Of a DNA stretch of 64,000 nt, positions 47,634 through 50,758 are shown piece by piece (position 1 is the stretch's first letter; each line of letters begins with the position of its first letter). The notes below the pieces were generated by a model, which was not told the DNA's origin, did not search any database, and saw nothing but the letters and a program-made list of their open reading frames with translations. The DNA lies in assembly GCA_963706595.1 (NCBI GenBank), contig OY970166.1:5505667-5569666 (forward strand), read 5' to 3'. Source of the stretch: an uncultured cyanobacterium. Lineage in GTDB: Bacteria > Cyanobacteriota > Cyanobacteriia > Cyanobacteriales > Nostocaceae. The translations under genes and the position numbers were made by a program.

Positions 47634-50318
47634 CTATCTTTGTCCCTTACGAACCATCCCTAGTCCATACAGGTATAACTCAGTAACTGTATAAGTACGA
47701 GGAGGCGGATCTTTGGGACGAGAGCGTTCGGTAAGAATACCAGCTTCCAGCATCATATCCTTGATGCGACGGGCTAATTCATCATCTTCAACTTTCCAGA
47801 TTTCAGCTAACCTATCTTCATCAATAGGAGAGCGTTCACCTTGGAATTTGTCTAAAAATTCTATCAGCTCAGGGTATTCATTCCTCACTTCGGTTACACG
47901 TTGGTGAGACACATAGGGAAAAGCATCAATCAATGCTTTTGGACGCAAAGTTATCTCGGAACTATATTCGGTAGCAAAGTCTGTTTCCTTTTTCACTGCT
48001 TCTTCTAAGAGCAATATCAAACTGCGTGGGAAACAATTATTATGACCGTCAGCGATACGGGTGCGAACCCAATTATAAGTGTAAGCCTTTTTTGTCCGCC
48101 CCATTCTTTCACCCCAGAGAGGATAGAGACTTTGACGCAATTGCTCCAGCCCAATTATATCGAGTCGCTCGACAGTAACCCCTAACTTTTCCTCCCAAAA
48201 TTTGGTCAGATATTCAGAATTTGTAAGAGCTTGGCGAAGTACAAGTCGCCAGAGATCAGCTTCTTCCCAACGTAGCTGAAGTGAACGTCCACTGTAATGT
48301 CCTGTATTAGTAAAGTTGAGTTGATTCCAAATATCTTCACGTAAAAATATCTTGGGTACAATCTGCTTGAAGTTTGTTCCACTTTCCAACCACCAAGCAA
48401 GCAATGCTTCTAAGGATCTTCTACGTCGCTCATAATCTTCTTCAGTAGAACCAAATCCAGCATCTAGTTCATCGTAAAGTAACCATATTACTAGATTTTT
48501 CTGCTGTAACCATCTGTCAATTAAACTCAATTCGTCTGATGCTTGTGGGCGCTTAGTTGGTGATTGTGAGCGTTCTACTAGCCATGAGATAATTTCAGAA
48601 TGTGCAGGGTGTTCTTGATTACTTAATGCTATTAATTTCTCATCTAAACTAGAGAGTGAACGTAATTCTGGCTGATGACTGCACAGTTGTAAAAGAGCAT
48701 AGTTGAGCCAAAAAAGTTGCCATTCATTCTCACCAACTTGTTGTTCATAACTCTTTAAGTCAAAACTGTTCAGAATTGTACCTGATACTCTAGGCTGACC
48801 ATGACCTGGAATAAAATTAACATGAGCTAAATTAACATCAGATTGAGCTAGTTCTTTTGCAGCATCTGATTTTTCTACAAACAGTCTAAACAATAGGCTT
48901 TTACCAGTTCCTTTAGCACCACGAATTAACCAAGTTCTATTACTTAAAAATCTAGGGAAATCCTCTGTGCGTTGAAATATAGCGGGAATATCATTTGGTT
49001 GTAGTTCTTGTGCTGTAGCTGCCTGAAACTTTAGTTCTTTCAGGATTTCTCTGCGGTCATCAATTGTTTTATTTGTAATATTAGGCTTAACATCTGGATC
49101 TGGCAAGCTGGCATCAATAGTGTCGGCAAGAGCCAAATAGGCATCTATTAAATTCTTGGGTACATTATTGACTAGACTAGACAAAGTTACAATACTGGCA
49201 TTATAGATAACTTCATAATAAAGTTGTCTGACAGTCATTTCATCTGGTAAACCCCAGTTATCTTCAATCCAATCTTCAACTTTATTTATCCAAATTTGAT
49301 GCTGTTCAGATGCAACGGCTGGTACAGGTGTTAAAAGAAATCTTACATCAGGTTTACTTTGATATTTTTGTTGTTTACGAGCAGCTTGTACAACCCAACG
49401 CAGTCCCTCAAAACTTTGGTCAGTTGGTGAAAAACAAATTATAGCCGTATCAGCTAAATCAAATAATGCGATCGCACCTACATCATTAAATCCTGGCCGA
49501 GCGTCAATTAAAATTACATCTGGGTCTAGTTGCTCTTTAATATCTTCTATCAGTTGCTTAACTGCATTTTTTCCAGACCTGTAAAAAGAGCGCATATCCA
49601 AATCAGCTAACCGATGAATATAATTTTCGTCATACTCCCCTACAGGAACTAAAAAAAGTTCACCACGAGTTTGTAAATTTATCTGTTGGATACAATCAGC
49701 AATATTAGGAACATCTTGGTCAGGTGTTAAAGAACGTTGATGTAAATAATCTAAAACTCCCAATTTTTCTTCAGTAGTATTTTCAATATCCTGCTGAAAC
49801 ATAATTGAAATTCCAGGAGCTTCTAAGTCAAAATCTACCATAACCACGCGACGCTTACGGGTTGCTAGTATACCTGCTACTACTCCTAAAGCTGTGGAAC
49901 GACCTACACCTCCCTTAAAAGAATAAAAAGTCACAATGAAAGGTTTTTTAGTAGGAATATCTTCATCTACCTCCACTGACTCATCAGGTTCTGGAGCCAT
50001 CAAAATATCTGACCAGAGAGGTAATTTTATATATTCAGGAGGTTGCTCTGTTGCTTCCTGGGGAGTTAGTAATTCATAGCCAGCAATGGGATATTGACCA
50101 AGATTTAAATTAGAGTCAAAATTTGTTAGCAAGTCATCTATTTGTTGCTCACGTTCAATTAAAAATTTACCTTCAAAGATGTTACTAACAATCCTAAGTT
50201 TTAGCCAACCTAATGAAGTTTGTTTAACACTCACTTGTACTTGTTCATCTTTACAGATTAAATTTTCGTTTAAGTATTGATGAATAACTTCCGGTGTTAA
50301 GCTTATATTATCAGTCAT
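47634..50318 (-). CDS. Multidomain ATPase: MNT/BolA-like N-terminus + KGGVGR-type ParA/MinD ATPase + second P-loop NTPase
   Basis: FYSFKGGVGRS, DFDLEAPG and IDARPG; then GAKGTGKS (Walker A), LLYDELD (Walker B) and KIFLREDI. Confidence 0.85.
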   Translation of the reverse strand: MTDNISLTPEVIHQYLNENLICKDEQVQVSVKQTSLGWLKLRIVSNIFEGKFLIEREQQIDDLLTNFDSNLNLGQYPIAGYELLTPQEATEQPPEYIKLPLWSDILMAPEPDESVEVDEDIPTKKPFIVTFYSFKGGVGRSTALGVVAGILATRKRRVVMVDFDLEAPGISIMFQQDIENTTEEKLGVLDYLHQRSLTPDQDVPNIADCIQQINLQTRGELFLVPVGEYDENYIHRLADLDMRSFYRSGKNAVKQLIEDIKEQLDPDVILIDARPGFNDVGAIALFDLADTAIICFSPTDQSFEGLRWVVQAARKQQKYQSKPDVRFLLTPVPAVASEQHQIWINKVEDWIEDNWGLPDEMTVRQLYYEVIYNASIVTLSSLVNNVPKNLIDAYLALADTIDASLPDPDVKPNITNKTIDDRREILKELKFQAATAQELQPNDIPAIFQRTEDFPRFLSNRTWLIRGAKGTGKSLLFRLFVEKSDAAKELAQSDVNLAHVNFIPGHGQPRVSGTILNSFDLKSYEQQVGENEWQLFWLNYALLQLCSHQPELRSLSSLDEKLIALSNQEHPAHSEIISWLVERSQSPTKRPQASDELSLIDRWLQQKNLVIWLLYDELDAGFGSTEEDYERRRRSLEALLAWWLESGTNFKQIVPKIFLREDIWNQLNFTNTGHYSGRSLQLRWEEADLWRLVLRQALTNSEYLTKFWEEKLGVTVERLDIIGLEQLRQSLYPLWGERMGRTKKAYTYNWVRTRIADGHNNCFPRSLILLLEEAVKKETDFATEYSSEITLRPKALIDAFPYVSHQRVTEVRNEYPELIEFLDKFQGERSPIDEDRLAEIWKVEDDELARRIKDMMLEAGILTERSRPKDPPPRTYTVTELYLYGLGMVRKGQR

Positions 50319-50758
50319 GATGCCTCTTGTTGTTTGTCTAGCAAAAATCGGTGTAAAATTTTTACTGCTTCTATAAAATCCTTGCTACTCTTCTCATCAC
50401 CTAGTCTGTCTGAATACCTTAATTCATCATTACGCCAGACTGATGAAACTAAATTCCATGCTCGTTTATAAGTACCAGTTCTATCTAATTTTATACTGCG
50501 TTGAACAGAAGTCAAAGCATTGAGTAAGTTTGTTAAATTATGCAGACTAGCAGCTTGTAGTCCTTTCTGAAAACATTTTGTATCTTTAAAGTTAGTTTTA
50601 TCTTCTTCATAACATATAAGAGATTTTAAGGAGCATTCAATCGAGTAACCTCCCAGATAAGTAGCACCTGTCCAACGTTTTTGGTTATGCAAGGCGACAG
50701 CATCTTCGAGCCTACGACGAGAAGCACCTAGCTGGCAACGTCTATCATAAGTATCCAT
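50315..50758 (-). CDS. HEPN-domain protein
   Basis: RLEDA..L, YLGGYSIECSLKS, HNLTNL and W..ELRY motifs; ATGA overlap with the next gene. Confidence 0.75.
   Translation of the reverse strand: MDTYDRRCQLGASRRRLEDAVALHNQKRWTGATYLGGYSIECSLKSLICYEEDKTNFKDTKCFQKGLQAASLHNLTNLLNALTSVQRSIKLDRTGTYKRAWNLVSSVWRNDELRYSDRLGDEKSSKDFIEAVKILHRFLLDKQQEAS

Follow-up and report, generated by a model that had tools for sequence, protein, structure and literature searches.

A HEPN gene coupled to a BolA-ParA-ORC/Cdc6 fusion gene in a Nostocaceae cyanobacterium: a candidate NTPase-switched conflict module of the HINPO/PDC-M28 type

A pair of coupled genes was analyzed in a stretch of 64,000 nucleotides (nt) from an uncultured Nostocaceae cyanobacterium (assembly GCA_963706595.1, contig OY970166.1, positions 5,505,667-5,569,666 of the forward strand). 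This stretch is called the window below, and positions refer to it unless a locus is named. Both genes lie on the minus strand. Gene 1 (50315..50758) encodes a HEPN-domain protein of 147 amino acids (aa), which belongs to the HEPN-T or AF0298-AbiV type and is a predicted RNase effector. Gene 2 (47634..50318) encodes an 894-aa fusion of a BolA-like domain, a ParA-type ATPase with a KGGVGR motif and an ORC/Cdc6-like ATPase of the Sll1717 family. On balance, we consider it probable that the pair is a conflict module of the HINPO/PDC-M28 type in its fused form, in which nucleoside triphosphatases (NTPases) would switch a HEPN RNase, and which would be a candidate for anti-phage or anti-plasmid activity.

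The stop codon of gene 1 and the start codon of gene 2 overlap by 4 nt in an ATGA (50315..50318, minus strand), an arrangement of translational coupling; reading the site directly confirmed the overlap that an earlier note on this DNA had seen in a two-gene operon. The open reading frame (ORF) that contains gene 1 starts at a TTG and would encode 160 aa (50315..50797, minus strand). The ATG at 50758, which yields 147 aa, was taken as start since nearly all homologues are 146-148 aa long. Homologues of both proteins number in the hundreds. In comparison with the two other genomes of the genus that carry the pair (G005 and G001), gene 1 has a ratio of non-synonymous to synonymous substitution rates (dN/dS) of 0.22, gene 2 one of 0.27-0.30 and the neighbouring gene one of 0.10-0.12. 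The ORFs are therefore not chance, and the gene pair is under purifying selection. Against the same genomes, gene 2 has a synonymous rate (dS) of 0.11, compared to 0.32 for gene 1 and 0.33-0.43 for the neighbouring gene, a large difference which suggests that gene 2 alone was recently exchanged between alleles of the island-bearing genomes. Nucleotide identities among these three genomes are 95-96% for gene 2, 84-89% for gene 1 and 89-91% for the neighbouring gene. A search of public sequencing runs for this DNA listed no RNA data set, and the best DNA data set contained a fraction of 0.29 of the sequence words.

The protein encoded by gene 1 matches the PADLOC profile PDC-M28A with E=2.9e-9. 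Its match to the Pfam HEPN family (PF05168) is sub-threshold (E=0.022), and the window's own protein has no Pfam HEPN match at E<=0.01. Among 1.84 billion representative proteins scanned, 297 are relatives at E<=0.001; of 88 aligned family members, 75 match PF05168 and 9 match HEPN_AbiV, both at E<=0.01, and a paralogue from the same genome lies above the Pfam HEPN cut-off with 25.6 bits. The AlphaFold2 model (predicted local distance difference test, pLDDT, 96.4) has the four-helix HEPN fold. A Foldseek search with this model gave nine top matches that are all HEPN proteins (E 0.012-0.23, probability 0.99-1.00). VIA, which is independent of Foldseek, aligned 119 residues with 1ufb (Z 13.8, root mean square deviation, rmsd, 2.8) and returned Z scores of 13.6 for 2hsb (AF0298), 13.4 for 1wol and 12.7 for the sacsin HEPN domain, values that helical models may reach at Z ~13 from helix arrangement alone. 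AbiV (Z 7.6) and other HEPN families scored below these top matches. The fold assignment was trusted because HEPN proteins make up most of the VIA list, in agreement with the sequence evidence. A PDB sequence search with the gene 1 profiles (A1, A3) found no real relative.

Five residues (Y34, E41, H73, R114 and Y115) are invariant in the 88-sequence alignment of the gene 1 family. E41, H73 and R114/Y115 lie in the motifs GYSIECSLKS (aa 37-46), LHNL (aa 72-75) and ELRY (aa 112-115), which the earlier note had taken for HEPN motifs, an assignment that agrees with the fold found by VIA and Foldseek. In the model, E41 is located in the helix formed by residues 29-51 and H73 between this helix and the helix 83-107; R108 is variable in the family. 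AF0298-like HEPN-T proteins and AbiV retain the basic residue of the HEPN motif but have lost its His. In these proteins, the insert between helices 2 and 3 supplies another conserved His and helix 2 an acidic residue, and an alternative RNase site composed of these residues has been proposed (Anantharaman et al. 2013, PMC3710099). E41, H73 and R114 fit this proposed AF0298/AbiV-type site, from which we infer that gene 1 may encode a catalytically active RNase. The codons of the predicted alternative active site span 50417..50638 on the minus strand (E41 50636-50638, H73 50540-50542, R114 50417-50419, with Y115 adjoining R114).

Gene 2 encodes two ATPases of different type, in agreement with the KGGVGR ATPase and the separate P-loop NTPase recognized earlier from their motifs. 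The ParA/MinD-type domain (aa 126-406; 49101..49943, minus strand) matches NCBIfam NF047398 AAA_KGGVGR with E=7.6e-55 and PADLOC PDC-M28B with E=3.5e-40. In its deviant Walker A motif KGGVGR (aa 135-140; 49899-49916), K135 is nearly invariant, and R140, which stands in place of the Walker A Lys, is invariant (33/33). D272, R274 and G276 of the DARPG motif (aa 272-276) are invariant as well. The second domain (aa 432-894; 47637..49025, minus strand) is an ORC/Cdc6-STAND-like AAA+ ATPase of the Sll1717 family, with matches to NCBIfam NF047389 ATPase_Sll1717 (E=2.9e-40), PADLOC PDC-M28C (E=2.4e-28) and Pfam PF24389 ORC-CDC6-like (29.6 bits, above the 27-bit cut-off). Its P-loop is canonical, with the Walker A sequence GAKGTGKS (aa 467-474; 48897-48920) and the Walker B sequence WLLYDELD (aa 612-619). 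Atlas neighbours of this domain are Sll1717 and nSTAND clusters; a PDB sequence search with aa 427-894 of gene 2 found no real relative.

The N-terminal domain of the fusion (aa 5-95; 50034..50306, minus strand) had been described as similar to minimal nucleotidyltransferases (MNTs) or BolA, with a catalytically dead MNT as the favoured reading. The BolA part of this description stood, the MNT part did not. With hhalign, 46 N-domains of fused proteins aligned to 23 cyanobacterial BolA proteins with a probability of 94.2% (E=1.2e-7, 56 columns) and to 28 MNTs of the same genomes with 0.2%, close to the control of BolA against MNT (0.1%). The AlphaFold2 model (pLDDT 70.6) shows the BolA order of elements, helix-strand-strand-helix-strand-helix. 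Foldseek placed BolA-family proteins at 18 of the first 19 ranks shown (best E=1.6e-4), and the putative nucleotidyltransferase 1ylq appeared first at rank 28 (E=0.03). VIA gave Z 9.6 for BolA 3o2e (rmsd 2.9, 83 residues aligned) and 8.4-7.7 for five other BolA proteins, compared to 5.9 (1ylq) and 5.6 for two MNTs. The dead-MNT reading is not supported by the hhalign and VIA values and was rejected for this protein, and the N-domain is predicted to be a BolA homologue and not a minimal nucleotidyltransferase.

This homology is visible at profile level, and the domain differs from BolA proper in several respects. When aa 1-125 were searched alone, Pfam BolA (PF01722) matched with 17.8 bits (E=0.0043), below its cut-off of 25.7 bits; in a second clade of fused proteins, three of four N-domains gave sub-threshold matches (21.2, 16.1 and 12.2 bits). 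Pfam scans of gene 2 and of the N-domain found no nucleotidyltransferase family. N-domain and BolA have in common the helix motif VVSxxFxGK...R/H. BolA proteins use conserved His/Cys ligand positions together with glutaredoxin. The BolA protein of the same genome has GGGDH and IHAL at these places, and the fused N-domain has TSLGW and IAGYELL, so that neither the IHAL-strand His nor the loop His/Cys is kept and an invariant Y81 is found instead; the RHR motif of BolA is also lacking. The domain is furthermore fused to ATPases in a conflict-system context. Its role might be to bind the partner protein or nucleic acid or to sense a signal. When shorter proteins with aa 1-125 were sought by a word-based search, all 14 retrieved were fragments of this fusion or truncated copies of it, and no stand-alone or split form with the fused-type N-domain appeared. 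Two N-domains of split-type proteins gave 0.1-0.2% against MNT, BolA and the fused N-domain, a comparison that carries little weight with n=2 sequences.

All three PADLOC PDC-M28 profiles match the pair in the order A and then B-C; PDC-M28 and the pair have the three profiles in common, with B and C forming one polypeptide here. The match to PDC-M28B covers positions 126-358 of 438, and its first ~125 positions are unmatched because the N-domain differs. The comparison with PADLOC was made with hidden Markov model profiles only, and the PADLOC system rule may or may not call a fused B-C. The literature searched contained nothing naming PDC-M28 or sll1717 and nothing relevant on KGGVGR. The second relative is the HINPO system, defined by Li, Burroughs and Aravind in a preprint of 22 October 2026 (bioRxiv 10.64898/2026.10.19.760177). 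According to the available part of this preprint, HINPO consists of an upstream HEPN gene (PA-HEPN1), a ParA protein of the ConB2 clade with Arg for the Walker A Lys and a PG motif after sensor-1, a rapidly evolving inactive Pol-beta nucleotidyltransferase (iNTase) at the N-terminus of this ParA protein, and an ORC-CDC6/STAND AAA+ protein that is 'in several cases' fused to the ParA component (bioRxiv 10.64898/2026.10.19.760177). The pair studied here has the upstream HEPN gene, the ConB2-type ParA domain (KGGVGR, DARPG) and the fused ORC-CDC6 module (PF24389, in one 894-aa ORF), and filamentous (multicellular) bacteria as hosts may be a further likeness. The HEPN component was compared by fold, family and gene position. 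The iNTase is not found; both fused cyanobacterial clades carry the BolA-like N-domain instead, and the word 'BolA' is not present in the main text of the preprint (bioRxiv 10.64898/2026.10.19.760177), whose authors may have grouped these proteins differently. With three of the four HINPO components matching, the locus is, as judged from its predicted domains, a fused cyanobacterial HINPO variant. The earlier note had presented the pair as a candidate undescribed defence system, and this novelty has to be withdrawn in view of PDC-M28 A/B/C and HINPO (bioRxiv 10.64898/2026.10.19.760177); as a conserved candidate conflict system, the pair is backed by the PDC-M28 match and by its adjacency in all assessable loci described below.

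Three further systems resemble the pair in part. Dyads of a HEPN protein (MAE_18760) with ParA/Soj were predicted to be toxin-antitoxin modules (Anantharaman et al. 2013, PMC3710099) and likewise combine a predicted HEPN RNase in an operon with a ParA/Soj-type ATPase that is proposed to control it. According to the available part of that article, MAE_18760 keeps Rx4-6H, whereas gene 1 is HEPN-T/PF05168-like with the alternative His and thus from a different HEPN family; unlike in these dyads, the HEPN gene is located upstream here, and a BolA-like domain and an ORC/Cdc6 ATPase are added. HEPN-MNT (HepT-MntA) pairs share the same broad HEPN clade and the overlap of a small HEPN gene with its partner gene, and the closest structures of gene 1 (1ufb, 2hsb, 1wol) are classic HEPN-domain proteins. 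They differ from the pair since a nucleotidyltransferase partner (hG[GS], DxD) is lacking here, the gene order is reversed and the partner is a double NTPase. AbiV, the abortive-infection HEPN RNase of Lactococcus (PDB 9bj5-9bj7), has like gene 1 lost the His of Rx4-6H and has a conserved alternative His (PMC3710099). Its fold match to gene 1 is far weaker than that of the AF0298/TT1696 group. To our knowledge, AbiV functions without ParA or ORC/Cdc6 partners.

The conservation of the pair was surveyed at 53 loci with close homologues of gene 1 (L024-L076, from cyanobacteria and a few Chloroflexota), 45 of which contain at least 2750 nt downstream. Gene 2 sequence follows directly 3' of gene 1 in 45/45 of these assessable loci, in line with the pairing proposed before. 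Both genes are intact in 36 loci (two of these, L045 and L046, belong to a single genome and are almost the same in sequence) and at least one is broken in 9: gene 1 alone in two (L066, L068), gene 2 alone in three (L037, L075 and L056, the last by a 215-nt insertion) and both in four. The HEPN gene is thus intact in 39/45 and the ORC/Cdc6 module in 38/45 loci. Gene 1 was lost and gene 2 kept intact in G001, L066 and L068. In L037 (6465-7649), a Hormoscilla metagenome-assembled genome, and L075 (6453-7655), Calothrix sp. NIES-4105, gene 2 ends at ~aa 406 beside an intact gene 1, and no remnant of ORC/Cdc6 is left. The two lineages are unrelated and show the same cut at a domain boundary; their loci are natural HEPN + BolA-ParA dyads. 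No intact gene 1 was found beside a disrupted ParA domain in the 45 loci. This decay pattern is compatible with the HEPN protein being the dangerous part that would be restrained by the N-terminal half of the gene 2 product, with the numbers being small. Its use as a statistic was rejected: gene 1 is broken in 4/4 loci with a disrupted ParA domain, but two of these are single deletions spanning both genes.

The arrangement recurs in other forms. Members of the second fused clade, with a full-length identity of 31-35%, occur in 16/301 genomes of the phylum, with a HEPN-like gene upstream in 4/5 loci inspected. One genome (G287) contains both fused clades, with copies 60% and 33% identical to gene 2. 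In 151 genomes of the class, PDC-M28B was found at 15 places, 13 of which lie in frames with a length of 891-939 aa; of the other two, one runs into the end of a contig and one is a split copy in the genome studied here. The latter is located outside the window on the plus strand (L014:4024-7334, where L014 is G000:C1:4085000-4097000) and encodes a HEPN-like protein (143 aa), a KGGVGR ATPase whose N-domain is of another kind (453 aa) and a Sll1717 ATPase (497 aa), which match PDC-M28A, B and C over their full lengths. Distant HEPN relatives with 29-39% identity (L077-L103; Acidobacteriota, Nocardia, Planctomycetota and others) are without ParA/ORC partners; the sole exception is L094 with a split A-B-C set. 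Many of them form another two-gene module (L078:5950-6782, L084, L087, L090, L091, L093, L096, L098-L103) with an overlapping downstream partner of ~125-145 aa that has no Pfam family, and in L085 and L092 (Nocardia) a partner of the ~130-aa type forms a fusion with an Mrr_cat restriction-endonuclease domain. The idea that this partner and the N-domain of gene 2 are a shared HEPN-binding domain was dismissed, since hhalign gave a probability of 0.13%.

The gene pair is located on an island that is present or absent within the genus. The inserted segment of 3318 nt (47584..50901) contains the pair as its only genes and is bracketed by direct repeats of 149 nt. The proximal copy (50902..51050) is the true 3' end of a neighbouring 369-aa gene (50918..52027, minus strand; Pfam HGSNAT_cat and DUF5009) plus 16 nt, the repeat thus comprising the final 133 nt of this gene and 16 nt more, and the distal copy (47435..47583) is a duplicate of this HGSNAT-like 3' end. 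The same-genus genomes G002, G003 and G006 have one copy of the repeat sequence and no insert, representing the empty site; in G005 and G001 the insert is flanked by both copies. G005 has both genes intact; in G001 a 240-nt deletion has reduced gene 1 to a 45-aa frame and gene 2 is an intact 894-aa ORF. Since the left flank of G001 is syntenic with G002 and G003, the difference between them is a clean 3.4-kb indel. The pair is therefore the sole cargo of a repeat-bounded island, just as the earlier note had it. The two repeat copies differ at 3/149 nt in the window, at 5/144 in G005 and at 13/148 in G001 with its broken gene 1; compared across genomes, the copies show 6-15 differences. These differences suggest that the copies undergo gene conversion in genomes with an intact island, and recombination between the copies would restore the empty site exactly.

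The distribution of the pair is patchy. Within the genus, 3/11 genomes carry it. Gene 1 was matched in 7/41 relatives including this genome, with a full-length orthologue only in G005. Gene 2 was found at E<=1e-60 in 26/301 genomes of the phylum, 11 of them with at least 59% identity, and 166 genomes from 10 further families of the phylum gave no match. Between orders, the identity is 59-88%. A 55-kb Nostoc plasmid carries a copy with 78% identity, flanked by hsdR and a gene for a recombinase. Where the hosts of homologues are named, they are filamentous cyanobacteria and Chloroflexota.

From these data, a course of events can be proposed for the conflict module. In the resting state, the HEPN protein would be held by the N-terminal half of the gene 2 product, where the BolA-like domain occupies the position that an inactive nucleotidyltransferase has in other family members. 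The ORC/Cdc6-like AAA+ module with its C-terminal helical domain is a likely sensor of foreign DNA, and the ParA-type ATPase with Arg for the Walker A Lys a likely nucleotide-dependent switch that dimerises or multimerises. Once an invader was sensed, the NTPases would switch or multimerise and the HEPN RNase would be released or activated, leading to growth arrest or death of the infected cell; binding, trigger, order of events and any anti-phage effect are what we infer here. Complex formation, as expected by the earlier note, was modelled by co-folding the HEPN protein with aa 1-420 of the gene 2 product. Three runs scored 0.15, 0.55 and 0.48 (median 0.48), compared to 0.00 for the best of three controls. 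The mark used is reached by 116/157 solved complexes and 2/215 mismatched pairs; at scores <=0.60, 18 of the 157 solved complexes passed, as did both passing mismatches. The pLDDT of the partner was at least 84 and the contact agreement between runs at least 0%, and no interface is given. The scores are thus slightly in favour of the HEPN protein binding to aa 1-420, and the runs disagree on the contacts.

Several points weigh against such a defence module. Gene 1 does not contain the canonical Rx4-6H motif, as no His follows 4-6 residues past R114 (RYSDRLGDE), and because of this the predicted RNase activity depends on an alternative site that is itself a proposal. The Lys-to-Arg change in the Walker A motif of the ParA domain might weaken hydrolysis. 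Support from co-folding is weak, with contacts that were not reproduced, and since the co-folding covered aa 1-420, the contact could lie elsewhere, for instance in the ORC/Cdc6 half. In the window, the neighbours of the pair are ordinary metabolic and envelope genes and no defence genes. A tblastn search against 50,697 phage records detected no homologue. No experimental work on the family was found in the literature searched; PDC-x entries are 'unpublished candidate systems' (PMC11811056), and the HINPO preprint is purely computational (bioRxiv 10.64898/2026.10.19.760177). Finally, the tree of gene 2 largely tracks taxonomy, with the Nostocales in one clade (starred in the tree) and the Chloroflexota apart, and in other cyanobacteria the pair comes immediately after chlH (CobN/Mg-chelatase), with both on one strand, at 10 of the 29 loci scanned (L033, L036, L037, L042, L044, L045, L049, L051, L056 and L067; the immediate neighbours were scanned with Pfam and a few with PADLOC). 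Tree and chlH position argue for long residence and not for the rapid turnover typical of defence islands. In L106, from the second fused clade, a Cpn60 chaperonin gene is found upstream, and L107 and L109 have ORFs of the same size at that place. An Obg GTPase gene lies convergent downstream in three Nostocales loci. Because patchy presence and the plasmid copy are combined with a taxonomy-tracking tree and the chlH/Cpn60 positions, the family is an old, often lost resident of filamentous cyanobacteria that is occasionally transferred.

An unlikely explanation, which nevertheless has to be considered in detail, is that the pair is a toxin-antitoxin (addiction) module that has no dedicated immune role and mainly stabilises the DNA carrying it. 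The HEPN protein would be the toxin, and the ParA-containing half would neutralise it by a nucleotide-dependent conformational change or by phosphorylation, as proposed for the dyads of HEPN (MAE_18760) and ParA/Soj (PMC3710099). The plasmid-borne copy, the natural HEPN + BolA-ParA forms without ORC/Cdc6 (L037, L075), the three genomes that have lost gene 1 but still have gene 2 and the weak co-folding signal with aa 1-420 (0.48 against 0.00 for the best control) all fit this explanation. The toxin gene comes first here, however, while MNT-HEPN and several type II dyads have the antitoxin 5' (PMC3710099, available part), and an 894-aa protein with two NTPases far exceeds the needs of neutralisation. 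The retention of an intact ORC/Cdc6 module in 38/45 loci, in two fused clades and in the split form argues for sensing. Toxin-antitoxin and abortive-infection roles are not mutually exclusive.

Quite unlikely in our view is a mode of action in which ParA multimerisation is the primary effector. ORC/Cdc6 would bind invader DNA and nucleate putative ParA assemblies that block it, the HEPN protein would be a back-up suicide effector, and the N-domain would sense a small molecule or a nucleic-acid fragment. This model is stated in the HINPO preprint (bioRxiv 10.64898/2026.10.19.760177, available part), and it agrees with the conservation of K135 and the switch motifs and with the canonical ATPase motifs of the ORC/Cdc6 module. 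The HEPN gene, though, is conserved and coupled to the same degree (intact in 39/45 loci, with invariant E41, H73 and R114), and since the N-domain is BolA-like, the proposed nucleotide sensing is not directly transferable.

Another role is one that we rate as highly improbable: the fused BolA variant in filamentous cyanobacteria would be a resident, stress-gated suicide or dormancy switch that is not mainly anti-phage. The BolA-like domain would read a redox, iron, glutaredoxin or nucleic-acid cue and license the HEPN RNase via the two NTPases. Such a switch would explain the taxonomy-tracking tree and the recurrent position after chlH or a chaperonin gene. Least probable of all is a long-resident cellular regulator whose BolA-like domain would read a stress, redox or iron cue and gate the RNase for dormancy or RNA turnover in filamentous bacteria, with no role in immunity: the tree, the position after chlH on the same strand in 10/29 loci and after Cpn60 in L106, the 59-88% identity between orders and the real BolA homology speak for it, but the pair is present in only 26/301 phylum and 3/11 genus genomes, it is polymorphic between insertion and empty site, one copy lies on a plasmid and many are pseudogenised, the domain has kept neither the BolA His/Cys ligand positions nor the RHR motif, and relatives are catalogued among defence candidates (PADLOC).

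Three features near the island were noted in addition. The left flank of the window from ~38.5 to 47.4 kb shows no synteny with the four genus relatives compared at the locus and appears to be a second variable region; these ~9 kb (38500-47430) contain a TonB-dependent receptor fragment and genes for a periplasmic binding protein and a FAD-dependent oxidoreductase. Upstream of the 369-aa gene, the intergenic positions 52128-52330 consist of short repeat elements of ~90-105 nt that resemble miniature inverted-repeat transposable elements and are present in dozens of copies with 85-100% identity in every genus genome searched. At 3 kb from the island, a gene on the minus strand (53902-57834) encodes a 1310-aa protein that consists mostly of GGxGxD-type calcium-binding (RTX-like) repeats.

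The family has been catalogued twice by computer, as PDC-M28 and as HINPO, and the locus described here is a clean minimal example of it, with two genes in 3.3 kb and relatives that are natural empty sites. Four aspects go beyond the literature searched. In the cyanobacterial fused forms, a predicted BolA homologue is found where the family description has an inactive nucleotidyltransferase, and the HEPN partner falls into the AF0298/AbiV-type group with a predicted alternative catalytic His. In natural truncations, it is exactly the ORC/Cdc6 module that has been lost, while HEPN and BolA-ParA are kept. The family has persisted long beside housekeeping genes, as far as tree and gene positions indicate, and is yet gained and lost within a genus. 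If the proposed mechanism is true, two different NTPase switches in series would control one RNase.

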